A DNA stretch of 64,000 bases, taken from the IMG/VR virus record IMGVR_UViG_3300017992_000017, positions 33,418-97,417 of that record; one strand, written 5' to 3'. A program made the position numbers and the translations under genes. Below, in pieces: positions 15,069 to 30,423 of this stretch. Each line of letters opens with the position of its first letter. Positions within the stretch are counted from its first letter, which is position 1. Source of the DNA: a virus. Its lineage: Duplodnaviria > Heunggongvirae > Uroviricota > Caudoviricetes. The notes beneath the pieces are model-generated. The model was given only the letters and a program-made list of their open reading frames with translations, made no database searches and was not told the DNA's origin.

Positions 15069-15289
15069 AGAGACTGAAGTTCTGCATCGGCGCGACCCTG
15101 TTCTGGTTGGGTCTGCCTTTTGCCGCTCTCTCCATCTTGATTATGTTTGCTCTCGGGGTGGTTGGTCTTCTGGGGATACTGGCCGTCATACTCCTCATGT
15201 CGTTTCCGTGTCTGGTGGGTGGTTGGTTGGCGACGGATGGTTGGTTGGAGAGGATCGAAGCCATGTCTGGTTTGGAGGACAAGGAGTGA
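15065..15289 (+). CDS. small membrane protein
   Basis: two hydrophobic helices (IGATLFWLGLPFAALSILIMFALGVVGLLGILAVILLMSF). Confidence 0.4.
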   Translation: MKRLKFCIGATLFWLGLPFAALSILIMFALGVVGLLGILAVILLMSFPCLVGGWLATDGWLERIEAMSGLEDKE

Positions 15290-15954
15290 AAACTGTCGCG
15301 TTCATGCCAATCAAGCTGAACAACCAGCGTCTCTCTGGGAAGAACACCCGGATGCTGAGAGACAAGCCGCTCTGCCAGTGGGCGCTGAACGAGTTGTTGG
15401 AGTTAAAGAACGACGAAGCGGTGGAGGAGGTCTACGTCTACTGCTCCGACCCTAAGATCGAGGACTATCTCCCGAACGGCGTGGAGCTGCTGTTGCGTAA
15501 CCCGTCGCTCGATCATCCACATGTCCAGGGTAATGACATCTACCGGTCGTTCATTGCCGAGGTACCTGCCGATCTGTACATGCTCCATCATGCGACCAGT
15601 CCCTTCGTCAAGGTTGAGACACTGTACCGGTGTCTTACTGCTGTGTCCTCTGGGAAGCACGACTCGGCCCTGACGGTCAAGGAGATGCACGGCCGGTTCT
15701 GGAGAAACAATGCTCCCGTGTGGCATGACCTGGAGACGGTGGGTCGGACGCAGGACATGACTCCCGTGTACTTCGAGACGGAGGCATGCTACGTCTTTCC
15801 TCCGTATCTTCTGGAGATTTACGGAAGACGGGTAGGGTTTAATCCATACCTGTGTCCCGTCGATGCGAAAGAAGCCATCGATATCGATACCCGGGACGAT
15901 TTTGAGCTGGCTCAGTGCGTGGCATGGCCGAGATATGCGTCAACTAACGGCTGA
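15286..15954 (+). CDS. CMP-sugar cytidylyltransferase (CMP-NeuAc/CMP-Kdo synthetase family)
   Basis: VAFMPIKLNNQRLSGKN (cf. IAIIPAR.GSKG..KN), downstream YVYCSDP, ATSPF; GTG start overlapping stop of upstream gene. Confidence 0.65.
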   Translation: MKTVAFMPIKLNNQRLSGKNTRMLRDKPLCQWALNELLELKNDEAVEEVYVYCSDPKIEDYLPNGVELLLRNPSLDHPHVQGNDIYRSFIAEVPADLYMLHHATSPFVKVETLYRCLTAVSSGKHDSALTVKEMHGRFWRNNAPVWHDLETVGRTQDMTPVYFETEACYVFPPYLLEIYGRRVGFNPYLCPVDAKEAIDIDTRDDFELAQCVAWPRYASTNG

Positions 15955-16669
15955 ATACGATCGACTCCGAGACTCCGTGATCTCCAGTACGAGCACGGAT
16001 GCACAGCTGGAGTGTTTGCACAACGCACACGCAGGGGAGACGGCATACCTGGTGGCTTGCGGACCGTCGACAGGACAGTACCGGGAGGAGTTTCTGCGGC
16101 AGCGACTGGCCAACGAACTGGTCATTGCCGTGAAGCAGGCCATGGATCTCGTACCGGGGATCGCTGACTATCACCTGATCAACGCCGTCAACCGGAAAGA
16201 GTACGACTACACACATCCCCGGCCGATCGTGATGTTCGTCTGCGAGATCGAACAGATGGTCCGGTGTCCGATGCTGCACGACGTTTACACCCCGAGACCA
16301 GGACGAGGGGACAAACACATCTACGTTAGCCAGAGCAAGGATTTCGACAGTTGGACGTTGGACAAGATCATTCGACGTCCTCTGGGTCCGACGATCGTGT
16401 TCACGCTGGGTATGTTCCTGGCCGTGCATCTTGGTGTGTCTCGGATCATCACGTTGGGTGTGGACATGGCGCCGGAGGACATGCGGCATTACTACCCGAG
16501 CAATCTGAATGAGGGACAGATCCTGCATTCGGAGTGGGAGGCCGGGTTGGTTCGGGATGCGCATGAGGACTGGGACCGGTGGTTGCGTAGCCGGGGTGTG
16601 AGGTGGTTACGTGCCGAGTCGGATGAACCCAACGGTTTTCCTTCAATCGAGGAGGTGAGTTTGTTGTGA
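15935..16669 (+). CDS. putative GT42/DUF115 (CstII/Maf-like) sialyltransferase-fold protein
   Basis: AYLVACGPSTGQY (cf. CstII IIAGNGPSLKEI) and TIVFTLGMFLAVHLGVSRIITLGVDM (cf. CstII TSGVYMCAVAIALGYKEIYLSGIDF). Confidence 0.45.
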   Translation: MRQLTAEYDRLRDSVISSTSTDAQLECLHNAHAGETAYLVACGPSTGQYREEFLRQRLANELVIAVKQAMDLVPGIADYHLINAVNRKEYDYTHPRPIVMFVCEIEQMVRCPMLHDVYTPRPGRGDKHIYVSQSKDFDSWTLDKIIRRPLGPTIVFTLGMFLAVHLGVSRIITLGVDMAPEDMRHYYPSNLNEGQILHSEWEAGLVRDAHEDWDRWLRSRGVRWLRAESDEPNGFPSIEEVSLL

Positions 16670-17031
16670 CAGCTAGGACAGTGGAGCAAACAACTAAGGA
16701 TTGGGGAACGGTGCGTACGCTATTCAATCGTGGCGATACGCGGGTGACTCTCATTGATGGACCACGAAAAGACCGGAACGAGGTTTGCTCGGAGCACGTT
16801 CACGCATATACGCATAACCTCTTCTTTGTGCTTCAGGGGTCGTTGGAGGTTCATTGCTGCAACCGAGGTGTGTGGAGCAACAACCTCCTCCAGCCTGGGG
16901 AGAGCTTTCTCGTACCGGCCGGGATGTGGCATTATTTCCGGATCCTAGAAGACCCTACCCAAGCCATCGAGATCTATTGGTCCGACAGCATGGAAAAGGA
17001 CATCGAACGGAGAAACGATGGCTCGAATTGA
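16666..17031 (+). CDS. cupin-domain protein (sugar isomerase/epimerase-like)
   Basis: two-His cupin motif HVHAYTHNLFFVLQGSLEV ... PAGMWHYF. Confidence 0.55.
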   Translation: MTARTVEQTTKDWGTVRTLFNRGDTRVTLIDGPRKDRNEVCSEHVHAYTHNLFFVLQGSLEVHCCNRGVWSNNLLQPGESFLVPAGMWHYFRILEDPTQAIEIYWSDSMEKDIERRNDGSN

Positions 17032-17527
17032 CCGGAAACAGATCGTTGCGTGGCTCCGACGTGCGTACCAGGTGGGGATGGATCAGTCGGATGACATGGA
17101 CACGAAGGTCGGTGCGATTCTGGTCGTGCCCTGGATGCCGGAGGACTGCGTTGAGGGTGCGAACCGGATACCTACAGGTCTCTCCCGTAGACCGTCGAGA
17201 AAGAAGCGACCCGACAAGTACCGGTATCTCGTCCACGCGGAGGAAGACTCGATCCTCCAAGCAGCCAAGCTCGGGAGGTCCACCAAGGGACTGACCATGA
17301 TCTGTCCGTGGGCGGCTTGTGCTCGGTGTAGTCGGATGATCGTGCAGGCCGGGATCAAACGGGTGATCAACCACAAGTCTTCCATGGACGCTACGCCAGA
17401 TCGATGGAAGGCCGACATCGAGCTGGGACATTCCATGCTGCGTGAGGCGAATGTTGATCTGATCACGTACGACGGTTGGGTTGAGGACGTGAAATCGAAA
17501 TTCGACGGAAAGGTTTGGTATCCATGA
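17018..17527 (+). CDS. dCMP/cytidine-deaminase-fold zinc deaminase
   Basis: HAEEDSILQAA ... MICPWAACARCSRMIVQAGIKRV (H-A-E and PC..C zinc ligands of CDA fold). Confidence 0.65.
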   Translation: MARIDRKQIVAWLRRAYQVGMDQSDDMDTKVGAILVVPWMPEDCVEGANRIPTGLSRRPSRKKRPDKYRYLVHAEEDSILQAAKLGRSTKGLTMICPWAACARCSRMIVQAGIKRVINHKSSMDATPDRWKADIELGHSMLREANVDLITYDGWVEDVKSKFDGKVWYP

Positions 17528-18126
17528 AGACCGTCGCAATCATCGGCAACTCACATCATCTCCTGGGATCACGTCTCGGGGACAAGATCAACTCGCATGA
17601 CGTGGTGATCCGACTGAACAGCTACAAACTGTATCCCTACCAGGCCGACGTAGGGACCAAGACGGACACCATCGTCCTTGTCCAAAATGCAGACAACAAC
17701 ATGCTGGCTCGCAAGGGGTTGTTGCCGGAGGAGCTCCAGACTTGCAACGAGCTCTGGTTCTCTCGTCCTCTTGGAGATCGTGGGGACATGGACAACGACA
17801 TGCGGGTCATCTTGAAAGCGATCGGCCGGTTCAAGGTGAAGGACTGTCGGTTTCCGGACTCGAAGGGTGTGAAGGAGCTCCGTGCCAAGCTGAACTCACC
17901 GTACTATCCGTCGACAGGGATAGTCACGATCTTCATGGTACTGGAAACGTACCCGGATGCTGACATTCGGATCGCTGGTTTCGGGGATCCACAGGAAACA
18001 GCGTTCAAAGAAGGACATTACTATCCGAACGTGCATGGTTTCAAGTGGATCCATGACGGTCTGGGTGAGCGTGCCTTGATCGATCACCTGGTAGACGAGG
18101 GGAAGATCTCGTGGCTGACGTCGTAG
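17515..18126 (+). CDS. GT29-like (eukaryotic-type) sialyltransferase homolog
   Basis: L-sialylmotif-like VAIIGNSHHLLGSRLGDKINSHDVVIRLNSYKLYPYQADVGTKTD (cf. CxVVGNSG.L..S.CG.EID.HDFVxRxNxAP..g.e.DVGsKTT) and S-sialylmotif-like PSTGIVTIFMVLETYPDADIRIAGFG. Confidence 0.6.
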   Translation: MVSMKTVAIIGNSHHLLGSRLGDKINSHDVVIRLNSYKLYPYQADVGTKTDTIVLVQNADNNMLARKGLLPEELQTCNELWFSRPLGDRGDMDNDMRVILKAIGRFKVKDCRFPDSKGVKELRAKLNSPYYPSTGIVTIFMVLETYPDADIRIAGFGDPQETAFKEGHYYPNVHGFKWIHDGLGERALIDHLVDEGKISWLTS

Positions 18127-19091
18127 CAATCATCCCGGCTCGTGGTGGGTCGGAGGGTGTGTGGAAGAAGAACCTGCAGAAGGTCGGTGGCGTGCCGTTG
18201 ATTGCGCGTGCCGTCCGTGCTGCCAAGGATGCTGTGTTGGTTGATAAGGTCGTGGTCTCGTCGGACGACAGCGAGATCCTGGACGTTGCGATAGGTGAGG
18301 GAGCGTCCATCTACTACCAGACTCCGGAGGTGAGTGGTCCGGACGATCTGCAGGAGAAAGCGATTCTTGAGTGGCTGGACGTGACAGGACGCACGGAAGG
18401 AACGCTGGCGATGCTCCAGTGTACGGCGCCGTTCATGACCGGTACGGACATAGATGGTGTGATTGTGGAGATGGACGTAAAGGAGGCTGACTGCTGTTTC
18501 GCTGCATGTCGGTTCCAGCATTTCATTTGGAGACACGACGGATCGAGGCAGGCATACGGGATCAATCACGACTCTTGGACGCGTCAGCAGAGACAGAACC
18601 GACACACGGAGTATTTAGAAGCTGGTAGCGTCTACGCTATGGATATCGCTGGGTTTTTGAAGCACAAACACCGGTTTTTCGGGAGGATCGCTATACACCA
18701 GGTGAATCCATCTCGCGTTTTTGAGATCGACACCTACGAGGAGCTGTTGTTAGCCAACCGGATCGCTGGGCTTCCCGAGCCGTTGTCTGGTCAGCGGGTG
18801 TTCGTGGACATCGACGAGACGATCTGCGAGACGCCATCGACCCGGGACTATACGAAGTCGACACCGAACTTGGACGCTATTGCCGAGATCAACCGGATGC
18901 GTGACCGGGGAGTTGTGGTCACCTATTGGACGGCGCGTGGTTCGGGGTGGCCTTCGGCGAGGGTTGAGGAGCTGACCAGGAGACAGATGAAGGAGTGGGG
19001 TGCCGAGTATGACTACCTGCTGTTCGGCAAACCTGTGTACGACCGGCTCTACGACGACAAGGCAGACTATCAGATACCGGGAGTCAACTGA
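18111..19091 (+). CDS. bifunctional CMP-sugar cytidylyltransferase / HAD-family phosphatase
   Basis: N-term VVAIIPARGGSEGVWKKN..LQCTAPF (NeuA/KdsB family); C-term FVDIDETICE ... TYWTARG (HAD DxDxT motif). Confidence 0.75.
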   Translation: MADVVAIIPARGGSEGVWKKNLQKVGGVPLIARAVRAAKDAVLVDKVVVSSDDSEILDVAIGEGASIYYQTPEVSGPDDLQEKAILEWLDVTGRTEGTLAMLQCTAPFMTGTDIDGVIVEMDVKEADCCFAACRFQHFIWRHDGSRQAYGINHDSWTRQQRQNRHTEYLEAGSVYAMDIAGFLKHKHRFFGRIAIHQVNPSRVFEIDTYEELLLANRIAGLPEPLSGQRVFVDIDETICETPSTRDYTKSTPNLDAIAEINRMRDRGVVVTYWTARGSGWPSARVEELTRRQMKEWGAEYDYLLFGKPVYDRLYDDKADYQIPGVN

Positions 19092-20147
19092 ATGACGGAC
19101 GTGAGGTTGGAAACGGGTGACTGTCGTGAAGTGATGTCGGCGTACGAGGAGAGCACGTTCACAGCGTGCGTGACCGATCCTCCCTACGAGCTGGGTTTCA
19201 TGGGTAAGGACTGGGACCAGGCCGGGGTTTCCTACGATTCCGAGACGTGGCGTGCCGTGTTACGTGTCTTGAAGCCGGGTGCGTTTCTCCTGGCGTTTGG
19301 GGGGACCAGGACGTACCACCGGATGACCTGCGCGATTGAAGATGCCGGGTTTGAGGTTCGGGACTGCATGATGTGGCTGTACGGGAATGGGTTTCCTAAG
19401 TCGCATAACATCTCGAAAGCGATCTCCAAATCAGGAGACAGAACAGCGTCTGACATGTGGGACGGCTACGGGACTGCTCTGAAACCCGCCTGGGAGCCGG
19501 TTGTTGTGGCCATGAAATCCTTGTCTGGGACGTTTGCGAAGAACGCTTTAGAGCAGAGGGTGGCTGGATTGAATGTTGATGGCGGGCGAGTGGAGTATGA
19601 GACCGGCGGCAGTCTCGCCAGCAATCCCTCCTTACGTCGCTCGGTCAAGGGTGGCAACGGCGGCCATATCATCGCCACAGAATCCGAAAGCCGCGAGATG
19701 GTTTCTCACGCCAAAGGCCGCTGGCCTGCGAACCTCCTGCTCGATGAAGAGTCGGGGGCGATGCTGGACAAGCAGAGCGGCGAGCGTCCGGGGTGTAGGT
19801 CGCGCAGCAACGCCAAGCCGGAGAGCAAGTTCCGACCCGGTCAAGGCGAGTACATGCCCCAAGGGCCAATCTACCCGGACACGGGCGGCGCGTCTCGGTT
19901 CTTCTACTGCGCCAAATCCAGCAAGAAAGAACGTGGCGAAGGAAACGACCACCCAACCGTCAAACCACTGAGACTGATGAAACATCTACTGACCCTCGTG
20001 ACTTACCCAGAGCAGAACCTGGTTCTCGACCCGTTCTGCGGATCTGGGACGACCCTACTAGCGTGCCGGGAGATGGGGTTGTCGTGCGTGGGTATCGACT
20101 CGGACCCACATGCTGTTGAAATCGCGGAAGCACGGGGAGTCAACTGA
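19092..20147 (+). CDS. DNA methyltransferase, beta-class (motif IV DPPY before motif I), probably N6-adenine
   Basis: CVTDPPYELGF (DPPY) near N-terminus; VLDPFCGSGTTLLAC (FxGxG AdoMet motif) near C-terminus. Confidence 0.85.
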   Translation: MTDVRLETGDCREVMSAYEESTFTACVTDPPYELGFMGKDWDQAGVSYDSETWRAVLRVLKPGAFLLAFGGTRTYHRMTCAIEDAGFEVRDCMMWLYGNGFPKSHNISKAISKSGDRTASDMWDGYGTALKPAWEPVVVAMKSLSGTFAKNALEQRVAGLNVDGGRVEYETGGSLASNPSLRRSVKGGNGGHIIATESESREMVSHAKGRWPANLLLDEESGAMLDKQSGERPGCRSRSNAKPESKFRPGQGEYMPQGPIYPDTGGASRFFYCAKSSKKERGEGNDHPTVKPLRLMKHLLTLVTYPEQNLVLDPFCGSGTTLLACREMGLSCVGIDSDPHAVEIAEARGVN

Positions 20148-20440
20148 TGAAGCAGGAAACGATCGCACGTCTGGTTCGTGAGTGTCCAGACGATGATGAC
20201 CTGGCGAAACTCCTACACGAGCAGCTGGAATTAGAGAAGTCCATCCGTAAACGTCGGTACGAGATCCGTTCGCAAGAGGAGCAGGTGCGGAAACAGCACG
20301 AGGAAGCGATGAAGACCCTCCGTGACCAGTGGCGGCTACTTTGGGAGAACTGTCCTCATCACGAGACGACGTACCATCCCGATCCGGCAGGTGGTTCGGA
20401 CAGTCATATGGCGTGCAATCTCTGTGGGAAGGAGATGTGA
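20147..20440 (+). CDS. hypothetical protein with C-terminal CxxC
   Basis: 97 aa; ATG overlapping MTase stop. Confidence 0.35.
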   Translation: MKQETIARLVRECPDDDDLAKLLHEQLELEKSIRKRRYEIRSQEEQVRKQHEEAMKTLRDQWRLLWENCPHHETTYHPDPAGGSDSHMACNLCGKEM

Positions 20441-20655
20441 TGGTGATGACCCGAGAAGAAGCACGTGAGATTTTGGATCAGGTTGTGGCTAACCAGAAGA
20501 CGCTGACTGCCTGCTCCGGTCCCCACGAGTTCGAGCCGGTGAGTAAGGATAAGAAGTTCTCTCGTAGGTATCGTTGTAAGAAGTGTGGGGGTGAAGTTGA
20601 GAGCCTGCATAAGTACTGGTACGAGCAAGGACTGAAACACGGGAGTAGGAAGTGA
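20440..20655 (+). CDS. hypothetical small protein with CxxC zinc-ribbon-like motif
   Basis: ATG overlapping upstream TGA; CSGPHEF..RCKKCGG. Confidence 0.3.
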   Translation: MVMTREEAREILDQVVANQKTLTACSGPHEFEPVSKDKKFSRRYRCKKCGGEVESLHKYWYEQGLKHGSRK

Positions 20656-21098
20656 AACACTCCGAGATGTGCAATCTGATGGGACAGGTAGTGACAGTAC
20701 GTCAGCAGCTCTGCGCCCGACGTCAGGGTATCCAGAAGAGATGGCTGTCCGAGAAAGTACCTGAGAGAGCTGGCTGGGTTGTCGGGTTCACGATACGGAT
20801 GGATGGACAAATTGAGCAGGGTGGTGACTTCTACAAGCCTCCGTACTTTCGGGAAACCAAGCGTACACCGTGTCTTCTGGTCGCATACTGGCCAACGGTA
20901 AAGCCTGTGCCGGTTCCTCTTGACGGATACGAGCTAGGTGGAACCCCAACGCCTCCGGACTTTGGCGGGTGGAGAGGAATCAATGAGGAAGCACTCCAGC
21001 GATACAAGCGAGAGCTCCGGGACGACATGATTCGCTGGCCTCGTGACAAGAAAGGCCGGTGGTTGAAACAGACTCCGGTACTTGGGAGCCAAACATGA
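20652..21098 (+). CDS. hypothetical protein
   Basis: 148-aa ORF with overlapping start. Confidence 0.4.
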   Translation: MKHSEMCNLMGQVVTVRQQLCARRQGIQKRWLSEKVPERAGWVVGFTIRMDGQIEQGGDFYKPPYFRETKRTPCLLVAYWPTVKPVPVPLDGYELGGTPTPPDFGGWRGINEEALQRYKRELRDDMIRWPRDKKGRWLKQTPVLGSQT

Positions 21099-21442
21099 TT
21101 GAGGTCGCGGTCGATTACACCGTTACGATCCTTGTCTTGGCGATTCTGGTTGTTGGCGCCGGGACGTGCGTGGCGGGTGGTCTCTGGCTGCTGGTGAAGT
21201 TCTTTGACTGGATCCTGGTCGGTGGCAATCCCCGTCTTCCTGGTCGAGGTGCTGTAGCTGTTTGTAGCCAGGGGATCGTTGGGATGATCGAGAACGACAA
21301 ACCTCAACGCGTCCATTACCCGGACGGAAACACGGGAAAAGCGTGGGTCGGACGTGCGATCTGGCCACCTGGTGTGTTTGGTGAGAAGTGGTCGAGTCGG
21401 AATCCGCGTGTGCTGTGTAGGATACCAAAGGAGATGCTGTAA
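21095..21442 (+). CDS. membrane protein
   Basis: N-terminal TM stretch VAVDYTVTILVLAILVVGAGTCVAGGLWLLV. Confidence 0.4.
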   Translation: MIEVAVDYTVTILVLAILVVGAGTCVAGGLWLLVKFFDWILVGGNPRLPGRGAVAVCSQGIVGMIENDKPQRVHYPDGNTGKAWVGRAIWPPGVFGEKWSSRNPRVLCRIPKEML

Positions 21443-22363
21443 ATGAAAGCCAAGAACGTCAAGTCAGTTATCCGTAGCAAGATCAACCATTTCCTGAAGC
21501 ATGTTCGGGACGAGGATGTCCGGAAGGTTCTGGAGAAGAACATCGTTGTTACTGGTGGAGCGATCGCGTCGCTGCTTCTCGGCGAAGAGGTGAACGATTT
21601 CGACATATATCTCCGGTCCAAGGAAGCTGCGTTGACGGTGGCTCAGCACTATGCAGCCGAGTTCGCCAATAATTCGCCACCCAGGCACCGCAATTCAAGC
21701 CAGAAATGCAACGTCGTCGTGGAGGAGCTGCCGGATCGCATACGCATCAAGGTCCAGTCAGCGGGCATTGCATCAGAGCAAGGCGACGAAGACTACGAGT
21801 ACTTCGAGACAACCAACCCCGAAGACGCCGACGCGCACGAGTATGTCAGCAAGGTACTGTCTATCGCACAAGATGCTGAGCCGGATAACGAGAAACCGAA
21901 ATACAGGCCGGTCTTCCGCACGGCCAACGCAATCACACTGAGCGACAAGGTCCAGATCGTGACCCGGTTCTTTGGCGAACCGGACGAGATCCACGAGAAC
22001 TACGACTTTGTACACGTCACCAACTACTGGACCAGCTGGGATAACAAATTGGTGCTTCGGCCGGATGCGATAGAGGCTCTCCTTGCTCGCGAGCTCCGGT
22101 ACGTCGGCAGTAAGTACCCCCTCTGTTCCGTGATCCGCACACGTAAGTTCATCCAGCGGGGGTGGGCCGTTACAGCTGGTCAGTACCTCAAGATGATTAT
22201 GCAGCTCCAGGAATTAGACCTGCATGACATACGTGTGCTGGAGGAGCAACTGACCGGTGTGGATGCAGCGTATTTTGATGAAGTCCTGGCTGCTCTGAAG
22301 AAGAAAGACGCGAAAAGGGTTGACGCGGCGTACTTGGTTGAGCTGATCGACAGGATCTTTTGA
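21443..22363 (+). CDS. putative Pol-beta-superfamily nucleotidyltransferase
   Basis: VVTGGAIASLLLGEEVNDFDIYL fits hG[GS]x9-13Dh[DE]h NTase signature. Confidence 0.4.
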   Translation: MKAKNVKSVIRSKINHFLKHVRDEDVRKVLEKNIVVTGGAIASLLLGEEVNDFDIYLRSKEAALTVAQHYAAEFANNSPPRHRNSSQKCNVVVEELPDRIRIKVQSAGIASEQGDEDYEYFETTNPEDADAHEYVSKVLSIAQDAEPDNEKPKYRPVFRTANAITLSDKVQIVTRFFGEPDEIHENYDFVHVTNYWTSWDNKLVLRPDAIEALLARELRYVGSKYPLCSVIRTRKFIQRGWAVTAGQYLKMIMQLQELDLHDIRVLEEQLTGVDAAYFDEVLAALKKKDAKRVDAAYLVELIDRIF

Positions 22364-22884: not shown

Positions 22885-22896
22885 GCAGGAGCCTAC

Positions 22897-23457
22897 ATGA
22901 CGTTCGGACGTGACGACCCCGTTGACCTGACATCCCATGAAGTGTTTGAAGCCGTGGTTCGGAAGTACAAGAACTGGATGTACCGGCTGGCTGGCCAGTA
23001 TGTGGAGCAACCTGCCGACCAGGATGACGTTGTGCAGTATGCGTGGTTGATCGTGTGGCAGGGACGGCACAAGTATACCGGTCCTGTGGGTAAGCTCCCG
23101 TTCTGGTTGAAGAAAGCAATACGCTACGCCGCACTGAATATCTACCGACAGCACCAAAGATTCCCGATGACAGGCTGTGATTTCTCGCGGGAGATCGATC
23201 CGTGTGCAGCAGAACCGGCAGTAGGTAGGGAGAAGGCCGAGCAAACGGAGGATCAGCACCAGCAAATCGACCGTGCTATGGCAACATTTCGGTTTCTCCC
23301 CAAACAACAACGGAGTGTCGTCAGGTTACGGATGGAAGGTCTACGGAATGAGGATATCGCCAAGAAGATGCGCCTCTCCAAGTCGTGCGTAGGCTCCCAT
23401 CTTCATCGTGCCAGGAAGAAGATCCGGCGTGAGATCGAGGAATCTCCAACTCTCTAA
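22897..23457 (+). CDS. second sigma-70 family (ECF-like) sigma factor
   Basis: QDDVVQYAWLIVWQ (region 2) and LPKQQRSVVRLRMEGLRNEDIAKKMRLSKSCVGSHLHRARKKI (region 4). Confidence 0.7.
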   Translation: MTFGRDDPVDLTSHEVFEAVVRKYKNWMYRLAGQYVEQPADQDDVVQYAWLIVWQGRHKYTGPVGKLPFWLKKAIRYAALNIYRQHQRFPMTGCDFSREIDPCAAEPAVGREKAEQTEDQHQQIDRAMATFRFLPKQQRSVVRLRMEGLRNEDIAKKMRLSKSCVGSHLHRARKKIRREIEESPTL

Positions 23458-23485: not shown

Positions 23486-24463
23486 ATGGCTGACAAGAAC
23501 ACTTCCTACACAAGCGCTGACGTCCTACCGATCAAGGTAGTCCTCGATACCCAGACCGTGGACCATATCCGTCGTTACCGCAGGATTCCACCGATCCACG
23601 CTCAGGTCATCCCGACGAATCGCTGCAACAGAAACTGTCCAATGTGCAGCTGTAGCGAACGGACCAAGAACCACGAGATGGATCTGTTCGACGTCGAGAC
23701 CATAGCCAAGGATCTCCGTCGACTGGGGTGTCGAGCCGTGACGTTGACCGGGGGTGGTGAGCCGTTAGTGCATCCGCAGATCGTCGACATCATCCGGCTC
23801 TTTCACGTCCTGGATATCGAGATCGGGATGACCACCAACGGGATGCTGTTGCACGAGCTCCCCGAGGAGGTAGTCGAGCTGCTGACCTGGTGTCGGATCT
23901 CGAACGACGACTCCAGACACATGTCCCCTCTGTACATGGCCAGTCTCGACAAGGTGTTTGTGGGAAGCTCCGTAGGCTGGGGTTTTTCGCACGTGGTCTC
24001 CAAGACCCCTAACTTCGAGGAGATTGCCAGGGTTGTACGGTACGCCAACGAGTGGAAGATCACCCACGTTCGCCTCATCGCTGACCTGTTCGAGCCAAAG
24101 GCCGTCGATCTTACGAAGGTGCGGCAGTATCTCTATGAGGAAGGGATCGACGACTCCCGGGTCATCTACCAGAACCGCCAACAACCAGTCCGGGGAGGTC
24201 CTTGCTACATCGGGTACTTGAAACCCCTGATTTCTGCCGACTGCAAGGTATATGCGTGCTGTGGGGTGCAGTACGCGTTGGATCCCCCTACCCGTGACCT
24301 ACCTCCGGAACTCTGTATCGGGGACGCGTTGGACCTGGGTGCGCTCTATGACAGCAGCGACGTACAGCTCAACGGGGAGATATGCAAGACCTGTTACTAC
24401 GACAATTACAACAACCTTCTCGGGTCGCTCCTGAAAGACACCACGCACGAGGAGTTTGTATGA
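23486..24463 (+). CDS. radical SAM enzyme with C-terminal Cys-rich (SPASM/twitch-like) extension
   Basis: CNRNCPMCSC (Cx3Cx2C), TLTGGGEPLVHP glycine-rich SAM motif; C-terminal CYIGY..CKVYACCG..C..C..CKTC. Confidence 0.75.
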   Translation: MADKNTSYTSADVLPIKVVLDTQTVDHIRRYRRIPPIHAQVIPTNRCNRNCPMCSCSERTKNHEMDLFDVETIAKDLRRLGCRAVTLTGGGEPLVHPQIVDIIRLFHVLDIEIGMTTNGMLLHELPEEVVELLTWCRISNDDSRHMSPLYMASLDKVFVGSSVGWGFSHVVSKTPNFEEIARVVRYANEWKITHVRLIADLFEPKAVDLTKVRQYLYEEGIDDSRVIYQNRQQPVRGGPCYIGYLKPLISADCKVYACCGVQYALDPPTRDLPPELCIGDALDLGALYDSSDVQLNGEICKTCYYDNYNNLLGSLLKDTTHEEFV

Positions 24464-25143
24464 CCTTCGCTATCATCTCCGGTGCTCGATCTGGCACGCA
24501 CATGCTCCGACTGGCGTTGTCGCAGCATCCGGACATCCACGTCTCTCACGAGTTGTTGAATCCTGATCGTTTAGGACACCGGTTTGGCGAGGAGACAGCG
24601 GAGACGATCATCCGGGAGTGGCAGCAAGAGCACTACCGGGAGGTCAAACAGCTAGGGTCTTTGTTGCATCGGGATCTTTACAACCGATCGGAGGAGATAC
24701 CTGGCGACCCCTGGAGAGATGTTCGTCGGAGTCACGCCAAGTTTATCAGCCTCTACCGGTACAACCTCCTCCGCAAGGTTCTCTCCGGGAGGACTGCGTT
24801 TGTCCACAAGAACTGGCAGTGCACGTCTCCCAGGACCAAGGAGTTGCCACCTATCACTCTGGATCCGGACCATCTTGAATCACATTGTCGCAAGGAGTGG
24901 AGGTCTTTCGGTCTGGTGGACGCGAGACTGCCACGTCACTTCGTCATCTCTTATGAAGATCTGGTGAGTGACTGGACGTATCACACGATGGCCATGCAGG
25001 AGTATTTGGGGGTGACGCCGGTTCAGCTCCACCCCCGAACTCACAAACAAGAAACACGCAGCCTCCGGGAAGCCATTGCGAACTACGACGAGATAGCTGA
25101 CCGGGTTTGTGAAATGGGTTGCGAAGACTGGTTAGAGGAGTAG
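24460..25143 (+). CDS. putative Stf0-like sulfotransferase
   Basis: N-terminal FAIISGARSGTHML (cf. Stf0 LASQRSGSTLL PAPS-binding loop); C-terminal ISYEDLV. Confidence 0.45.
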   Translation: MTFAIISGARSGTHMLRLALSQHPDIHVSHELLNPDRLGHRFGEETAETIIREWQQEHYREVKQLGSLLHRDLYNRSEEIPGDPWRDVRRSHAKFISLYRYNLLRKVLSGRTAFVHKNWQCTSPRTKELPPITLDPDHLESHCRKEWRSFGLVDARLPRHFVISYEDLVSDWTYHTMAMQEYLGVTPVQLHPRTHKQETRSLREAIANYDEIADRVCEMGCEDWLEE

Positions 25144-25145
25144 TC

Positions 25146-25892
25146 ATGCCAACTGTTAGCGTAATCTTGACGTCCCACAACCACGGACCGTTTCTGCGTC
25201 AAGCCATCGAGAGCGTGCTGGCTCAGACGTACACGGACTTCGAGCTATTGATTCTGGATGATGCGTCTACGGATGGGTCAGCAGACATTGCACGGGAGTA
25301 TGTCGGATCCAACGCCTTTCTCCAGGACTACCAAGAAAAGGCATCCAGTCTCGGGGTTGTCCTGAACCGTAGCATTCGTCTGGCTCGTGGAGACTACTGG
25401 GTCTGGGCACCTTCAGATGACGTGCTCAAACCGGATCTCCTAGAGAAGAAGATGGCCACGGCACAGGAGCATCCCGGCGCCGTCCTCTACTCAGACTGGG
25501 AGTACATCAATGAGCGGGGGGACGTGACCGGGACCAAACGTCTACCGGAATGGACCGCCGAGGATATCGCAAGGATGGTGTGGGAGAAGTCCATGCTCGG
25601 GTTCACCGGCATCTGGATACCCATGTCCGTCTTCGATGAGGTGGGGAACTGGCCGACGCACATGCTCTTCTCCGAGGACTTCTCCTGGTTCGTTCGAGCT
25701 ACGATCCACGGAATACCTTTCATCAACTGTCCTGAGGTCCTCTTCCAGAAACGGCTCAACCCTCTGCAGACAGCCAGTAAGGTCGGGACGAAACGCATCC
25801 TTGAGCTGGTACCCGCAATCCATAGTGAGCTCCGTTGGTACCAACATCTCTACCAACAACACCATCCTGACTACGAGGTGCCGAGTCAATGA
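25146..25892 (+). CDS. family-2 glycosyltransferase
   Basis: VSVILTSHNHGPFLRQAIESVLAQTYTDFELLILDDASTDGS (GT2 N-terminal signature with DDxS). Confidence 0.8.
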   Translation: MPTVSVILTSHNHGPFLRQAIESVLAQTYTDFELLILDDASTDGSADIAREYVGSNAFLQDYQEKASSLGVVLNRSIRLARGDYWVWAPSDDVLKPDLLEKKMATAQEHPGAVLYSDWEYINERGDVTGTKRLPEWTAEDIARMVWEKSMLGFTGIWIPMSVFDEVGNWPTHMLFSEDFSWFVRATIHGIPFINCPEVLFQKRLNPLQTASKVGTKRILELVPAIHSELRWYQHLYQQHHPDYEVPSQ

Positions 25893-26728
25893 GGGTTGTC
25901 TTCTTCTGGGGAACGTCTCCGTTGTCGTGGATGAGGTACGCCACGATCGCCAGCTTCCGGAAACTCAATCTGGACTGGGAGATCGAGCTGTATCTCTACC
26001 ACCACCAGCACGTCAAGAAGTACTGGACCGACTCCCCGGTGCAGGATTTTTCCGAGTACCGAGGAGCCGACTACTTTCCTTTGCTCACGGACCTTGGTGT
26101 TCGGGTCATTCCGTGGGAGTTGCCGGAGGAGCTGCAGGACAAGAAGCACGTCATCGGTCCTTCCCACGCCAGTAACTTCTTCAAGTGGAGCTGGCTGTCC
26201 GAGAACGTGGGTGTCTACTGCGACCTGGACATCCTCTGGACGTCCCCGCTTACGGACTGGCTTGACTGGGTGGCCACGTACGATGCTGCTCTTGCTTACA
26301 CGCCGGAGTACTTCTCGATCGGCCTTCTCTGGTCGGGACAGCAGCCGAACCCCGTCTACAAGGATATCCTGGCCGAGAGTTACCGCACCTTCACGCACAC
26401 CAAGTACCAGAGTGCCGGGGTCGTGGCACTCTATCGGTTACTGCAGAAGTTCGACCCAGCGTACCGTGAGCACCCGTGGGATAAGGATCTGCTCGCGAGG
26501 TACGACAACGCATACCTCTTCGACATGGACTGGGTCTATCCTTGGCGATTCAACCAGATGGAGGAGGTTTTCAACAAGAAGCACGAGGTCATCCCACCGA
26601 TGTGCAAGGGGATCCACTGGTACGCCGGGTCTCCAATCGCACAGAAGTACAACAACCTGATCACCGAGGACACGTTGGATCAGTACGACAATACGTTCAC
26701 CCATTTCGCGAGACGGGTCCTTGGTTGA
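25889..26728 (+). CDS. GT32-like (DXD, Gly_transf_sug-type) glycosyltransferase, paralog A
   Basis: FFWGTSPLSWMRY...FFKWSWLSENVGVYCDLDILW (DxD); paralogous to next ORF. Confidence 0.6.
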   Translation: MRVVFFWGTSPLSWMRYATIASFRKLNLDWEIELYLYHHQHVKKYWTDSPVQDFSEYRGADYFPLLTDLGVRVIPWELPEELQDKKHVIGPSHASNFFKWSWLSENVGVYCDLDILWTSPLTDWLDWVATYDAALAYTPEYFSIGLLWSGQQPNPVYKDILAESYRTFTHTKYQSAGVVALYRLLQKFDPAYREHPWDKDLLARYDNAYLFDMDWVYPWRFNQMEEVFNKKHEVIPPMCKGIHWYAGSPIAQKYNNLITEDTLDQYDNTFTHFARRVLG

Positions 26729-27536
26729 TCCTAAGAAACATATCGTCTTCTTCTGGTCCGGTCGTTCGCTGTCTTGGCTGCGATACCTGACGATCTACTC
26801 GTTTCGTGTCCTGAACCCGGAGTGGAAGATCTCCCTGTACCTGTGTCATACGAGTCTGGTGACGACTTGGCTCGATCATAACCGTCTCGACTTCAGTGAG
26901 TATGAAGGTGAGGACTATCTTCCCAGGCTCCAGTTTCTAGGGGTCGATGTCCAGCAGTGGGAGTTGCCTCCGGAGATCTGTAGTGCCACACCTCCCCACG
27001 CGTGCGATCTATTCGAGTGGCAGTGGCTGTCGGAGAACGTCGGGTACTACGCCGACATGGACATCCTGTGGGTCCGACCGATGAAGGTCCCGGACTCTGA
27101 TGCAGCGATTGTGTACGGCAAGCAATTCAGTATCGGCTTGGTGTGGTCGGGTGTGGCTCCGAATCCTATGTTCCGGGACATCTACCAGGAGAGCCTCCGT
27201 ACGTACACACCCGCCGTCTACCAGAGTGCCGGGGTCGTTCCCATCTACCAGCTCTTAGGACATTCCGGTCCCGAGGTTGACCTGTCCATACCCTGGTTCG
27301 AGCGATTACGAGAGAAGTATCCCACGGTCTCCAAGCTGCCGTTCCCCATGATTCATCCGTGGGATCATGAGCAGCTGGAAGCCATGTACGACGAGCTACA
27401 TACCGAGGTACCAACAGACTGTGTCGGAATTCATTGGTACGGTGCTGCTCCAAGGTCCCAGACGTTCAACCAGGAATACGGACCGAGGACGCAGCAGGAT
27501 AATACGCTAAGTCATTTTGCGAGACGGGTGGCATGA
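26721..27536 (+). CDS. GT32-like glycosyltransferase, paralog B (tandem duplicate)
   Basis: FFWSGRSLSWLRY...LFEWQWLSENVGYYADMDILW; colinear with paralog A, both end ..FTHFARRV. Confidence 0.6.
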   Translation: MVDPKKHIVFFWSGRSLSWLRYLTIYSFRVLNPEWKISLYLCHTSLVTTWLDHNRLDFSEYEGEDYLPRLQFLGVDVQQWELPPEICSATPPHACDLFEWQWLSENVGYYADMDILWVRPMKVPDSDAAIVYGKQFSIGLVWSGVAPNPMFRDIYQESLRTYTPAVYQSAGVVPIYQLLGHSGPEVDLSIPWFERLREKYPTVSKLPFPMIHPWDHEQLEAMYDELHTEVPTDCVGIHWYGAAPRSQTFNQEYGPRTQQDNTLSHFARRVA

Positions 27537-28303
27537 AACCCCTGGTGTCCGTGGTGGTGGCGACACGCAACAAGGACAAGATCCTGGCCAAGGTGCTGGC
27601 TAGTATCTACCGTCAGTCGTGTGCCTATCCCTTGGAGGTCGTGGTCGTTGATGACGGATCCACGGACAACACCCGGGAGACCTGCCTCGCGTACCCGGAC
27701 TTGCGATACATCAGGTTGGAGGGTGGGGAGTACCGAAACTCCTGCTTTGCTCGAAACTGTGGGTACTGGGCAGCGAACGGCATGGCGTTGGTACTGCAGT
27801 CGGATGATGTGGTGCATGTCTCCGAGCGTGCCGTCGAGAAGCTGGTCGATCGGTTGGGACCTGGCGAGTTTACGATTGCCACGGTCTACAACTACGACCC
27901 CGAGACCAACGCACCGGTCCTGATGTACACGGGGACGGGATGGAAGCGACCGTTCTTCTTCCTGGGAGCGATACGGACCGAGGACATCTATGCAGTCGGT
28001 GGGAATGAGGAGGAGCTATTGGATGTGGGGGTTGGGTTCGATGATACGTGGTTGGCCGACTGTCTCACGCTAGGACAAGGACTAACCCCGGTATTTATGC
28101 ACACCGTTCTTGGATATCACCAGAATCACCGTCCCCTGATCCCCGGCATCATGAGGGAGAAACACGCCGACGCGAAACTCTGGTACGAGGCAAAGGTGCG
28201 TACGGGAAGGTTCGTGACCTCTACCGGCGCGTGGACAGAACGAATGGATCCTGACGAATGGGTACGGCATTATCACGTGTGTCAAGATCTATCGAGGTAC
28301 TAA
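27533..28303 (+). CDS. family-2 glycosyltransferase
   Basis: VSVVVATRNKDKILAKVLASIYRQSCAYPLEVVVVDDGSTDNT. Confidence 0.75.
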   Translation: MKPLVSVVVATRNKDKILAKVLASIYRQSCAYPLEVVVVDDGSTDNTRETCLAYPDLRYIRLEGGEYRNSCFARNCGYWAANGMALVLQSDDVVHVSERAVEKLVDRLGPGEFTIATVYNYDPETNAPVLMYTGTGWKRPFFFLGAIRTEDIYAVGGNEEELLDVGVGFDDTWLADCLTLGQGLTPVFMHTVLGYHQNHRPLIPGIMREKHADAKLWYEAKVRTGRFVTSTGAWTERMDPDEWVRHYHVCQDLSRY

Positions 28304-28403
28304 TGTCCGAAGACGTCTACTACCTGACTCCGAAAGCCATCATGGTCGGGGTGCTCAGTGAATATATCCCGCATGAAGAACTTGTAAACGCAGAGGACGA
28401 GGA

Positions 28404-29279
28404 ATGAGCACCACGATCGTAGCTGAGATCGGGATCAATCACAACGGCTGTCTCGCATTCGCCAAAGAGATGATCGACGCAGCGTATGAGGCTGGTGCCG
28501 ACGTGGTGAAATTCCAGAAGCGTACCCTGCCTGCCGCCGTTCCCATCCACCAGCGACACGCACTCAAAGAGACGCCTTGGGGACAGATGACGTACCTCGA
28601 CTACCGAAACAAGCTGGAGTTCGGGTTCGAGGAGTACTGCACCCTCGATCGGTGGTGTGCCAGGTACCCGATCTCCTGGACTGCGTCGGTGTGGGATGCG
28701 GAGGCTGCCAAGTTCATCGCTCAGTTTGACGTGCCGTACCTCAAGATCCCCTCAGCTGCCATTACGGACGCTCGACTCCTAGATGTCGTACGAGCCACGG
28801 GTAAGCCGGTCGTGATGAGCACCGGCATGTCCACGCTGGAGGAGGTAGACGCTGCGATCAACGTGCTCATGGGTAGCCGGTACTGTGACGGAGACTCCTG
28901 CCGTCGTACGCGTCAGCTACCACCGGCTCAGCTCACGCTCCTGCATTGTGTGAGCACCTATCCGACAGCCATCCCAGACATCAACCTCCGGGTCATGGAC
29001 ACGCTACGAGCTCACACGGGACTCCCAGTAGGCTATTCAGGACACGAGGTAGGGATGGCTGTGAGTATTGCCGCTGTTGCTCGTGGTGCCTGCATGATCG
29101 AGAGACACTTCACCACGTCGCAGACCATGTGGGGTACGGATCAGCGAGCATCTATGGAGCCGGGGGATTTTGCTGCACTGGTCAACGGTATCCGATCGGT
29201 GGAGAGAGCACTCGGTGATGGGGTGAAGATTGTCTGCACCCGAGAACTTCCTATTCGACAGAAGCTACGGGGTGTGTGA
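28404..29279 (+). CDS. neuB: NeuB-family nonulosonic acid (sialic-acid-like) synthase, catalytic domain only (no SAF domain)
   Basis: IVAEIGINHNGCLAFAKEMIDAAYEAGADVVKFQ, VVMSTGMSTLEEV, LLHCVSTYP, GYSGHEVG, IERHFT, end LGDGVK colinear with NeuB/PseI; ORF stops where SAF domain would begin. Confidence 0.85.
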   Translation: MSTTIVAEIGINHNGCLAFAKEMIDAAYEAGADVVKFQKRTLPAAVPIHQRHALKETPWGQMTYLDYRNKLEFGFEEYCTLDRWCARYPISWTASVWDAEAAKFIAQFDVPYLKIPSAAITDARLLDVVRATGKPVVMSTGMSTLEEVDAAINVLMGSRYCDGDSCRRTRQLPPAQLTLLHCVSTYPTAIPDINLRVMDTLRAHTGLPVGYSGHEVGMAVSIAAVARGACMIERHFTTSQTMWGTDQRASMEPGDFAALVNGIRSVERALGDGVKIVCTRELPIRQKLRGV

Positions 29280-29566
29280 TGACTACCGTTATGTCCAATA
29301 CGCTGTTCGACATCGTCTCCGAGATCCACGAGAGGCTACAGCAACAGATCGACGAGGGGGTTGTCAGATGGGAAGTGCTCGATACCGGAGGAGCAGCACC
29401 AGTACCGTGTGGGGTCGTCTTTCGGTACGAGTTTGTGTGGAACAATCACAAATACATATGGAAACATGCTTTCTCAGCCATCGAGCTCCTGTGTTGTCCG
29501 GATCCTATCTGGGTGGCTGAGTGGTTGGCCGATAGCTGGTTGCATGATGCTAAGGCTGTGAAATGA
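29276..29566 (+). CDS. hypothetical protein
   Basis: 96-aa ORF with start overlapping neuB stop. Confidence 0.35.
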   Translation: MMTTVMSNTLFDIVSEIHERLQQQIDEGVVRWEVLDTGGAAPVPCGVVFRYEFVWNNHKYIWKHAFSAIELLCCPDPIWVAEWLADSWLHDAKAVK

Positions 29567-30423
29567 AGATTGTCCACTACAAGAAGACCCCCCTGGCTTA
29601 CGCTCCGGACTGGTTGTCGATGGCAATCAACAAGTACTCGGAGCATGAGTCTTCGGTCGTCACGTATCCGAAGCAGCTCCCCAAGCCAGCCAAGGATACG
29701 GTCGTCCATTTTCACAACCGGTTCGTCCCCTACGCCGGTCCCTGTCTGATCCAATACCATTCGGAGCCAGACGAACCGAACCTGATGCATCCGAAAGACC
29801 ACCCCACCGCTCCAGAACGTCGGTTGGTGGTGGCTCATTATCACCCCACGCTCCCCGAATACAAGGACATGCACCCGGTCCGTAACGTGGTGGACTTCAG
29901 ACGTCCTCAGTTTGCATACACCCCGGTTCGGAAGTTCAAGGTCGGTTACTCTCCCTCAGTCACGCGTCGGATCAGCAGGTGGTACGACAAGGGATATGAG
30001 AAGACAGTACAGATCCTCCAGCGTGTTGCCAAAGAAGTCCCGGAGATGGAGGTCGACATTATTGCCGGGGTTTGTCTGGATGAGTGTCTCCGGCGTAAAC
30101 GGGACTGCTCCGTGCTGATCGATGAGTGCGTGACCGGGAGCTATCATCGGAGTGGACTGGAAGGACTGGCGTTGGGGAAGGTGACGATAGCCGGTATGGA
30201 TGCTGCCGTGGTTGATGTGTTTCAGAACGTGTCGGGATCTGTTCTGATTCCGTTTACGATCTGTGGCATCGACTACCTGTGCAACAAGCTGATCCGTCTG
30301 TCCAAGGATATTGATGCGTTGAGAGAACGAGGACTGCACAACCGGCAGTGGTTTGAGAATTTCTGGGCGCCTGAACAGATCGTGGCCGAGTACGTGGAGC
30401 ACTACAAGGAGGTGCTGGCATGA
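29563..30423 (+). CDS. putative GT1/GT4-fold glycosyltransferase
   Basis: C-terminal SYHRSGLEGLALGKVTIAGMDAAV resembles GT4 E.FG...lEAmA.G.PVI block. Confidence 0.45.
   Translation: MKIVHYKKTPLAYAPDWLSMAINKYSEHESSVVTYPKQLPKPAKDTVVHFHNRFVPYAGPCLIQYHSEPDEPNLMHPKDHPTAPERRLVVAHYHPTLPEYKDMHPVRNVVDFRRPQFAYTPVRKFKVGYSPSVTRRISRWYDKGYEKTVQILQRVAKEVPEMEVDIIAGVCLDECLRRKRDCSVLIDECVTGSYHRSGLEGLALGKVTIAGMDAAVVDVFQNVSGSVLIPFTICGIDYLCNKLIRLSKDIDALRERGLHNRQWFENFWAPEQIVAEYVEHYKEVLA

Follow-up and report, generated by a model that had tools for sequence, protein, structure and literature searches.

Described Nonulosonate Pathways and the Phage Island

The routes to activated nonulosonates (sialic-acid-like sugars), whether the NeuC/NeuB/NeuA route, the pseudaminic and legionaminic acid (Pse/Leg) routes, the animal route or the Kdn route, share three steps: condensation with phosphoenolpyruvate (PEP) by a NeuB-family enzyme, activation by an enzyme of the CTP_transf_3 family, and transfer by an enzyme with a sialyltransferase fold. 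Virus-encoded glycosylation is already known as well, and the literature lists pseI as an auxiliary gene of marine phages. A review of giant viruses mentions no sialic, nonulosonic or legionaminic acid and no Kdn, and the sole viral sialyltransferase that it names is the alpha-2,3-sialyltransferase of Myxoma virus (PMC9614988). The subject here is a 64,000-nt stretch of the Caudoviricetes virus record IMGVR_UViG_3300017992_000017 (positions 33,418 to 97,417), hereafter the window, whose own positions serve as coordinates. It carries an island that combines a NeuB-family synthase, two cytidylyltransferases, a small HAD phosphatase, two putative nonulosonate transferases, further glycosyltransferases (GTs) and a sulfotransferase. 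We consider it reasonably probable that this phage module builds a nonulosonate glycan in the cytoplasm by a phospho-sugar-fed route, with a virion protein as the likeliest acceptor. The enzyme families are established by homology, motif or fold; the chemistry proposed for them, including the sugar made, is read from sequence.

The sequence surveyed comprised the window and 10 kb on each side (~85 kb) of an incomplete genome, and profile searches used Pfam (gathering scores), NCBIfam/TIGR (equivalog cut-offs), PHROGs and sequence matches to the PDB. From 15.3 to 30.4 kb the + strand is filled without a break by genes, each stop codon overlapping or adjoining the next start, in two translationally coupled blocks (15286–21442 and 23486–30806), and the same open reading frames (ORFs) are called independently on identical JGI, ENA and Logan contigs. 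At least 13 glycan-related genes in two such blocks are far beyond chance. An earlier note on this DNA had proposed a glycosylation island here, at 15286–30423. Every ORF that it named is present on the + strand, at or near the position given and in agreement with the independent gene calls, and its core proposal, a toolkit for nonulosonate synthesis, activation and transfer with extra GTs and a sulfotransferase in a phage-like replicon, is supported by profile hidden Markov models (HMMs), motifs and folds, and each refuting outcome that it had named failed to appear. The glycan genes are thus borne out, but the interval is not purely one of glycosylation, since it also holds a deaminase, a DNA methylase, a Gad2-like gene and four small ORFs, which had been missed, and two sigma factors.

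The Synthase, the Cytidylyltransferases and the Fused Phosphatase

The proposed synthase is a true member of the NeuB family rather than a generic TIM-barrel aldolase. Its PF03102 match (Table 1) spans the full-length domain, and the residues aligned to Glu25, Lys53, Gln55, His215, Glu234 and His236 of Neisseria meningitidis NeuB, which we take from the structure of that enzyme to be catalytic or metal-binding, are all kept (phmmer alignment to 2wqp). Against TIGR03569 it scores 271 bits, under the equivalog cut-off of 399.65, over model positions 2–274 of 329, and PseI scores lower. The C-terminal SAF/antifreeze-like domain is absent: the TIGR03569 match stops at model position 274, and the protein is just 291 aa long. 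The best PDB match, 6ncs, is likewise short (290 aa), and the short form without SAF also occurs in cellular NeuB relatives. Identity to these cellular relatives does not exceed 49%, and they are spread over many phyla; they were therefore rejected as an indicator of the host. In 18 cellular loci the NeuB gene is partnered with a cytidylyltransferase; HAD and GT29 genes are found in none of the 18 and an MptE-like gene in one, and there is one match to the model of the GT4-like family u286 (described below), of uncertain meaning.

Both of the CMP-sugar-type cytidylyltransferases that had been proposed, one of them fused to a HAD phosphatase, are borne out. CTP1, the free-standing one, is divergent and has weak PseF and KdsB matches in NCBIfam, far under the equivalog cut-offs. 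The second protein joins a NeuA-type synthetase (residues ~1–220), which would form the cytidine monophosphate (CMP) derivative of the sugar, to a small HAD phosphatase (~228–320). Its NeuA domain matches NeuA 9t4z (5e-23), mouse CMAS 1qwj (2e-18) and also 1eyr. The C-terminal ~100 aa contain DIDET, TARG and KP..DDKA, corresponding to the nucleophile, Thr/Ser, and Lys plus acidic motifs of HAD enzymes, and match PDB entries 9iqw (E 5e-10) and 1xpj. Animal CMAS is likewise a synthetase fused to a HAD-type domain. In 11 of 15 viral loci, and likewise in the Kyanoviridae virus AG-345-L05, the immediate neighbor of NeuB is a free-standing homologue of the island HAD. We infer that 9iqw is connected with AfhF of phage HY126 from the adjacent code 9iqz ('phage HY126 glycosyltransferase') and from PMC13326640. 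AfhF is reported to be a Mg2+-dependent phosphatase that converts arabinofuranose-1,5-bisphosphate (Araf-1,5-P2) to Araf-1-P, and is analogous to the HAD-like DLP3 phage protein gp81, for which 1xpj is the closest structure (PMC13326640).

The steps that form the precursor are missing, as the earlier note had remarked. Pfam detects no Epimerase_2, dehydratase, aminotransferase or acetyltransferase in the island, and so no NeuC, PseB/C/H/G or LegB/C/H/G, whereas precursor genes do occur in some related phage clusters (L006 and L018). This is partly explained by the phosphatase, because a HAD enzyme fused to the synthetase or adjacent to NeuB points to a route fed by phospho-sugars.

The Sialyltransferase-Fold Enzymes

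The gene described as GT29-like encodes little more than the catalytic core of a GT29 sialyltransferase. It scores far above the Pfam gathering score and carries all four sialylmotifs, and only the start had to be changed, the ATG lying at 17524 and not at 17515. Sialylmotif L is VAIIGNSHHLLGSRLGDKINSHDVVIRLN (VAIIGNS...VVIRLN), sialylmotif S is PSTGIVTIFMVLETYPDADIRIAGFG (PSTG...IAGFG), motif III is HYY and motif VS is HDGLGE. Six aligned phage GT29 sequences all share the key residues of these motifs, and motifs L, S and III align with those of pig ST3Gal-I (2wnb). The protein has neither a hydrophobic segment nor a Cys at the first position of motif L, and so departs from the type II topology and disulfide of eukaryotic enzymes. 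Of 1.84 billion cluster representatives, an exhaustive phmmer search with it gave 625 at E<=1e-3 and just 24 at E<=1e-10. Many of these relatives are stand-alone proteins of 180–220 aa, and one is annotated as 'GT29 family protein' in a Phenylobacterium metagenome-assembled genome. A scan of IMG/VR with this single GT29 protein found nothing. We know of no biochemical characterization of any prokaryotic or phage GT29.

The second putative nonulosonate transferase is an MptE-like (DUF115) protein of the fold shared by Maf and GT42 enzymes. A model predicted with moderate confidence shows a sialyltransferase-like Rossmann fold with GPS and GxD motifs, and the characterized structural neighbor of the protein is Maf, a flagellin glycosyltransferase. 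Its homologues score better than the protein itself: P0006 carries PF01973, and a protein of cluster L018 reaches 46.9 bits.

The GT4-Like Family u286, Other Glycosyltransferases and Tailoring Enzymes

The last gene of the island encodes u286, a compact GT4-like glycosyltransferase of a virus-specific family. As had been suggested for it, the protein has a confidently predicted GT-B fold of two Rossmann domains, and its closest structural neighbors are ordinary GT4 enzymes, not DNA glycosyltransferases. It has no Pfam Glycos_transf_1 match and no canonical EX7E motif; the motif region reads SYHRSGLEG, in which His/Arg replace the first Glu. A Lys-Gly element is kept, which in GT4 enzymes such as PimA binds the diphosphate of nucleoside diphosphate (NDP) sugars. 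The two GT2 enzymes named by the earlier note both have PF00535 matches. The tandem GT32-like genes are paralogues (46% identical, E 2e-78) with DLD and DMD motifs, and a Gly_transf_sug/Caps_synth-like gene also occurs in related cluster L027.

The cupin, the radical-SAM enzyme and the Stf0-like sulfotransferase are confirmed by Pfam, except that HMMs detect no SPASM domain, which had been assigned to the second. The Sulfotransfer_3 match covers the N-terminal 5'-phosphosulfate-binding (5'-PSB) loop (ISGARSGTHML). The radical-SAM enzyme has just generic radical-SAM matches in NCBIfam and PHROGs, and radical-SAM genes also occur in related clusters L006 and L027. The cupin is a possible sugar(-phosphate) isomerase or tailoring enzyme, and a homologue 31% identical to it lies within the NeuB cluster of viral contig L016. 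Membrane segments are predicted for none of the island enzymes, and hydrophobic ORFs are limited to two small ones, of 74 and 115 aa. In Pfam searches the island shows no flippase, polymerase, exporter or priming phosphoglycosyltransferase, and thus lacks the makeup of a surface-polysaccharide locus.

Recurrence of the Module in Uncultured Phages

Large uncultured phages repeatedly carry a glycosylation module of which the island is one copy. Among 50,697 GenBank phage records, NeuB matches are found in three, one of which is a bacterial contig, and GT29 together with u286 in one alone, LR756508, an uncultured 484-kb phage with five GT29 paralogues, NeuB, a small HAD and a u286 protein 42% identical to that of the island. 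A PHROG scan with eight module proteins (u286, the MptE-like protein, GT29, both GT32-like proteins, CTP1, NeuB and the sulfotransferase) gave zero matches. Five GT29 paralogues are also found on a 62-kb Logan contig (L006), along with NeuB, a cytidylyltransferase, two MptE-like genes, a HAD, a NeuC-like epimerase and Rml genes. Four IMG/VR contigs (L016–L019) have NeuB with MptE-like or cytidylyltransferase genes.

The u286 family has at least 202 homologues (~35–48% identity, no Pfam domain) on contigs of up to 484 kb. In all six contexts sampled, a CTP_transf_3 gene lies within two genes of u286, and NeuB and/or a GT29 or MptE-like gene lies nearby. A pattern scan found relatives in 39 IMG/VR loci, some nearly identical to one another. 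When the 6 kb on either side of u286 in these loci, near-duplicates included, were searched with ad hoc HMMs, a GT29 or MptE-like gene was found in 31 of the 39, a cytidylyltransferase in 22, NeuB in 17 and a small HAD in 15. A repeated gene order is MptE, CTP, GT29, u286 ... NeuB, HAD. The carriers include T4-like and huge phages of 130–484 kb. A pattern scan of one genome each from 185,579 bacterial and archaeal species did not find the u286 signature motif in any; the module carriers are therefore not common prophages. Relatives of u286 at 30–33% identity were observed on two contigs (L056 and L057) binned as giant-virus metagenome-assembled genomes (GVMAG), which may mean either that the family is not confined to tailed phages or that these bins contain contaminants.

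Two of the related clusters differ in setting and content. L026 (ENA ERZ19549449, a 199-kb contig) adjoins genes for a Gp23 major capsid protein and a prohead protease, and L024 (Logan SRR24908268, 179 kb) holds two sulfotransferases, GT10 and GT25. Both pair GT29 with GT25, GT10 or GT11 (fucosyltransferase-type) genes. Elsewhere, a set of GT29, fucosyltransferase and sulfotransferase builds sialylated, fucosylated and sulfated Lewis-type glycans.

A Proposed Pathway and Its Acceptor

In the pathway proposed here, a hexose 6-phosphate of the host, either mannose 6-phosphate or N-acetylmannosamine 6-phosphate and perhaps adjusted by the cupin, would be condensed with PEP by NeuB. The former would yield Kdn and the latter N-acetylneuraminic acid (Neu5Ac). 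The HAD phosphatase would strip the terminal phosphate, acting either on the 9-phospho-nonulosonate or on the hexose 6-phosphate before condensation; dephosphorylation after condensation is what occurs in the animal NANS/NANP route and the Bacteroides Kdn route. The NeuA domain would then activate the sugar with cytidine triphosphate (CTP) to the CMP-sugar, and GT29 and the MptE-like enzyme would transfer the nonulosonate onto a short glycan. That glycan may be started by u286 as a priming or core transferase, which is proposed to add a core hexose from a host NDP-sugar because its Lys-Gly element is retained, and may be extended by the GT2 and GT32-like enzymes with host NDP-sugars. The Stf0-like enzyme would sulfate it with host 3'-phosphoadenosine-5'-phosphosulfate (PAPS). 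Two features place assembly in the cytoplasm of the infected cell: the predicted solubility of the enzymes and the lack of any flippase, polymerase, exporter or lipid-priming transferase.

As targets the earlier note had named virions, the host surface or some other one; phage DNA is added here as a further candidate. The most likely acceptor is a phage structural protein, which would give the virion a sialylated, anionic coat. A virion protein is favored because export machinery is lacking, the MptE-like fold is related to Maf, cluster L026 lies beside capsid genes, and mycobacteriophages offer a precedent. The latter are reported to carry phage-encoded glycans on subunits of the capsid and the tail tube (Freeman et al. 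2023, PMC10527164, as cited in PMC12619734).

The same pathway could instead modify a glycoconjugate of the host envelope (lipooligosaccharide (LOS) or lipopolysaccharide (LPS) core, capsule, S-layer or flagellin) during lysogeny or infection, with receptor masking, superinfection exclusion or serotype conversion as the outcome. We hold this to be unlikely, while giving it more weight than the other alternatives. An integrase gene is present in the window. The GT25, GT10, GT11, GT29 and sulfotransferase families of the related clusters are those that bacteria use for LOS mimicry, and bacterial LOS is sialylated at the cytoplasmic face with no need of a dedicated exporter. In Acinetobacter, tailoring of the nonulosonates of the capsule by prophages is documented (PMC12053666, PMC6586298). 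Against an envelope acceptor stand the lack of lipid-carrier priming, flippase, polymerase and exporter genes in the island, the absence of the u286 motif from the bacterial and archaeal genomes scanned, and the occurrence of the module in T4-like and huge phages, a group that is usually virulent. The cellular NeuB relatives also argue against it, as they lack HAD, GT29 and MptE-like partners apart from the single MptE-like gene and the uncertain u286-model match noted above.

Several observations weigh against a virion acceptor or against parts of the proposed pathway. No capsid, portal, terminase or tail gene was recognized in the ~85 kb of window and flanks, and the island sits amid replication and nucleotide-metabolism genes, not late genes. 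Neither cytidylyltransferase reaches an NCBIfam equivalog cut-off, which leaves both without an assigned substrate specificity. The MptE-like protein, called GT42/DUF115-like in the earlier note, has its fold and its scoring homologues in its favor, but its own PF01973 match of 20.4 bits is under the gathering score of 34.6, and its start is at 15977 and not at 15935. For the tandem DXD pair, paralogy and motifs held, but the GT32-like assignment is below threshold and comes from one copy alone. Finally, u286 is strongly conserved across phages of 28–66% GC, a pattern that would be more in keeping with a chemically invariant acceptor, for example DNA, than with virion proteins, which evolve fast.

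This last point is among those that suggest a glycan on phage DNA, in which u286 would attach sugar to a hydroxylated pyrimidine and the glycan, sulfated in this phage, would be capped with a nonulosonate by GT29 and the MptE-like enzyme, as an acidic hypermodification against restriction and other nucleases. The setting is one of DNA metabolism: the operon includes a dCMP deaminase, an N6/N4 methylase adjoins it, genes for Rad50-like and exonuclease proteins lie on its flanks, and related modules lie beside PolB, dUTPase/DCD or helicase genes. AfhF is reported to act in the supply of UDP-arabinose for DNA arabinosylation, DLP3 gp81 and the island HAD share their match to 1xpj (PMC13326640), and the building of multi-sugar DNA glycans by phage GT clusters is established (PMC13326640; Pyle et al.). 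However, the ~85 kb contain no match to a ThyA-type hydroxymethylase or hydroxylase (Thymidylat_synt) or to TET/JBP (Tet_JBP), while ThyX and the dCMP deaminase suggest an ordinary supply of dTMP. The structural neighbors of u286 speak for an ordinary GT4 enzyme and not a DNA glycosyltransferase, and neither GT29 nor Maf-type enzymes are known to act on DNA. A text search of the DNA-glycan paper also found no mention of sialic or nonulosonic acids. A DNA acceptor is accordingly rated as improbable, more so than an envelope acceptor. If it were the true one, an acidic sialo-glycan hypermodification of DNA would be a chemical class never reported.

Intervening Genes and the Replicon

The deaminase embedded in the first block probably serves nucleotide metabolism. 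The interval 19092–23457, which includes the four small ORFs, holds non-glycan genes and splits the island into its two blocks. The Gad2-like protein there is a candidate anti-defence gene, Gad2 presumably being an anti-defence protein against Gabija. The two extracytoplasmic function (ECF) sigma factors that follow it may time expression of the downstream block.

Table 1. Genes of the glycosylation island and of the interval between its blocks, in window positions.
Feature	Coordinates	Strand	Evidence and remarks
CTP1, divergent CMP-sugar-type cytidylyltransferase, 222 aa	15286–15954	+	PF02348 CTP_transf_3, E 6.9e-9, 36 bits, above gathering score
MptE-like/DUF115 (Maf/GT42-fold) putative nonulosonate transferase, 230 aa	15977–16669	+	Weak Pfam match, homologues, predicted fold
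Small metal-binding cupin, 121 aa	16666–17031	+	Cupin_2, E 3.6e-10
dCMP/cytidine deaminase-family gene	17018–17527	+	dCMP_cyt_deam_1, E 3.5e-13; ends overlap cupin and GT29 genes
GT29 sialyltransferase catalytic core, 200 aa	17524–18126	+	PF00777, E 1.5e-22, 80.7 bits (cut-off 23); no transmembrane segment or stem
NeuA-type CMP-nonulosonate synthetase + small HAD phosphatase, 326 aa	18111–19091	+	CTP_transf_3, E 1.5e-16
N6/N4 DNA methylase	19092–20147	+	
Gad2-like/phrog_4400 protein, 306 aa	21443–22363	+	phrog_4400, 2.5e-66; precomputed Pfam Gad2 (PF26128)
Two tandem ECF sigma factors	22363–22884, 22897–23457	+	
Radical-SAM enzyme, Cys-rich C-terminus	23486–24463	+	PF04055, E 5e-16; CX3CX2C motif CNRNCPMC
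PAPS-type (Stf0-like) sulfotransferase, 227 aa	24460–25143	+	Sulfotransfer_3, 35 bits, above gathering score
GT2 a	25146–25892	+	PF00535, E 6.5e-23; no transmembrane segment
GT32-like DXD transferase, paralogue a	25889–26728	+	Gly_transf_sug, E 0.0099, below gathering score; DLD motif
GT32-like DXD transferase, paralogue b	26721–27536	+	No Pfam match of its own; DMD motif; paralogue of 25889–26728
GT2 b	27533–28303	+	PF00535, E 1.3e-19
NeuB-family nonulosonate synthase, short form, 291 aa	28404–29279	+	PF03102, E 9.8e-78
95-aa ORF between NeuB and GT4-like gene	29279–29566	+	Called on independent contigs; no family match
u286, compact GT-B/GT4-like glycosyltransferase, virus-specific family	29563–30423	+	Confident GT-B/GT4 fold; no Pfam match

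The window and its flanks contain genes for replication and recombination (a ResIII helicase, DnaB, a 5'-3' exonuclease, a clamp-like protein, a fusion of uracil-DNA glycosylase (UDG) with PolA, RecA, Mre11/Rad50-like proteins and a phage-type exonuclease), for DNA or nucleotide modification (ThyX and a C5 methylase), and for two tRNAs, a Thg1-like enzyme, a SpoU methylase, a peptide deformylase and an integrase. For the product of the integrase gene, an exact look-up gave no record. The replicon had been credited with T4-like replication and recombination functions, sigma factors, an integrase and ArdA. Phage-like replication and recombination, sigma factors and the integrase are found, but the polymerase is of family A fused to UDG and not of T4 type, and no scan found ArdA. 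The polymerase protein (816 aa, 4112–6562, +) consists of a uracil-DNA-glycosylase-superfamily domain, a 3'-5' exonuclease and a family A DNA polymerase, and its PolA part is only ~30% identical to any GenBank phage polymerase.

That the element is a phage is a strong inference. Since no structural gene was recognized and the NeuB scan of IMG/VR did not return the window's own contigs, the element might be taken for a plasmid, an integrative and conjugative element (ICE) or a misassembled cellular island, and the cluster for an ordinary bacterial surface-polysaccharide locus. This is very improbable. The element was assembled independently in the JGI, ENA and Logan data sets, on contigs of up to 105.7 kb, and it has strong PHROG matches (the exonuclease to phrog_704 at 3e-75, in addition to the phrog_4400 match in Table 1) as well as tRNAs. 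Its replication and recombination genes form a complete set, and cellular housekeeping genes are absent from it. In addition, u286 is found in viral contigs, one of them with Gp23 capsid genes alongside, and in no cellular genome scanned.

Further features of the phage were observed outside the island. A tRNA-Thr(TGT) lies at 31060–31134 (+) and an atypical tRNA, to which ARAGORN gives no anticodon, at 11767–11835 (+); Rfam confirms both, and ORF 31031–31405, which overlaps tRNA-Thr, is probably spurious. The Thg1-like tRNA-His guanylyltransferase (E 4.7e-30, 59417–60175, +) adjoins a SpoU-type RNA methylase (L020 4206–4763), and the phage therefore encodes tRNA repair or modification functions. 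An RGP (PF03214) homologue and the peptide deformylase are found at L020 12980–14412, ~8 kb past the right end of the window; the former is a sugar-related gene outside the island, and a peptide deformylase also lies inside related cluster L006. In the 347-aa ORF 42859–43902 (-), the C-terminal two-thirds consist of 25.5 tandem copies of a 24-nt unit (DNA repeat 42873–43483), equivalent to 8 residues (consensus ~AGSCSIQN). This ORF has weak matches to a 'baseplate' PHROG, the sole hint of a virion structural gene, and to Pfam Cornifin, and its product could be a fibre or beta-helix protein. A 466-aa ORF (L013 8588–9988, its C-terminal part being 16–825 of the window) lies directly upstream of the C5 methylase (838–2124) and has no Pfam or PDB sequence match. 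Should it be a TET/JBP-like dioxygenase, the case for a glycan on DNA would be strengthened.

Comparison With Known Systems

Each enzyme of the island belongs to a known superfamily. A literature search found no described phage GT29, no complete phage nonulosonate pathway, whether or not coupled to GT29, and no description of this virus-specific module. The gene set is present in many uncultured large phages and in no cultured one, and some phages probably build sialylated glycans that have so far gone unseen. If the pathway is active, some phages would make sialic-acid-like sugars and attach them through an animal-type GT29, sometimes together with fucosyltransferase-family or sulfotransferase enzymes. 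The sialylated, anionic surface of the virion or infected cell that would result could affect adsorption, aggregation, mucus binding, grazing and immune recognition. There would also be a large, previously unnoticed viral reservoir of GT29, NeuB and CMAS-HAD-like genes, which bears on the origin of eukaryotic sialylation, for which a bacterial source has been argued (PMC5811610). Compact soluble sialyltransferases and a minimal CMP-nonulosonate pathway could serve glycoengineering, and the u286 family provides a simple marker for finding such phages.

Among described nonulosonate routes, the animal NANS-NANP-CMAS-GT29 route and the Bacteroides Kdn-9-phosphate route resemble the island in including a HAD phosphatase. 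The island differs from the described routes in having no NeuC, GNE or Pse/Leg precursor enzymes and a NeuB without SAF, and its HAD is of the small 1xpj-like type, as opposed to the KdsC/NANP type. For the MptE-like fold, the named kin are the Maf (DUF115/MptE-like) glycosyltransferases that attach nonulosonates to flagellin and the GT42 enzymes CstI and CstII.

Virion glycosylation by mycobacteriophages (as cited in PMC12619734) and the machineries of giant viruses (PMC9614988) resemble the island in that viral GTs act in the host cytoplasm and export machinery is lacking; the GT genes of the island, in contrast, are not beside capsid genes. Phage DNA hypermodification, such as T4 glucosylation and the arabinosyl-5-hydroxycytosine (5hoC) of RB69, DLP3 and HY126 (PMC13326640; Pyle et al. 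2024), has in common with the island a supply of sugar nucleotides, a 1xpj-like HAD, GT-B transferases and a setting of DNA metabolism. No base-hydroxylating enzyme was found for the island, however, and its donors would include a CMP-nonulosonate and its transferases include GT29 and Maf-like enzymes. The bacterial GT29 proteins are like that of the island in having no membrane anchor and no motif-L cysteine (Petit et al., 2018, PMC5811610). Unlike them, the GT29 of the island is a phage protein whose gene lies among those for a complete CMP-nonulosonate supply, and related phages carry up to five GT29 paralogues.

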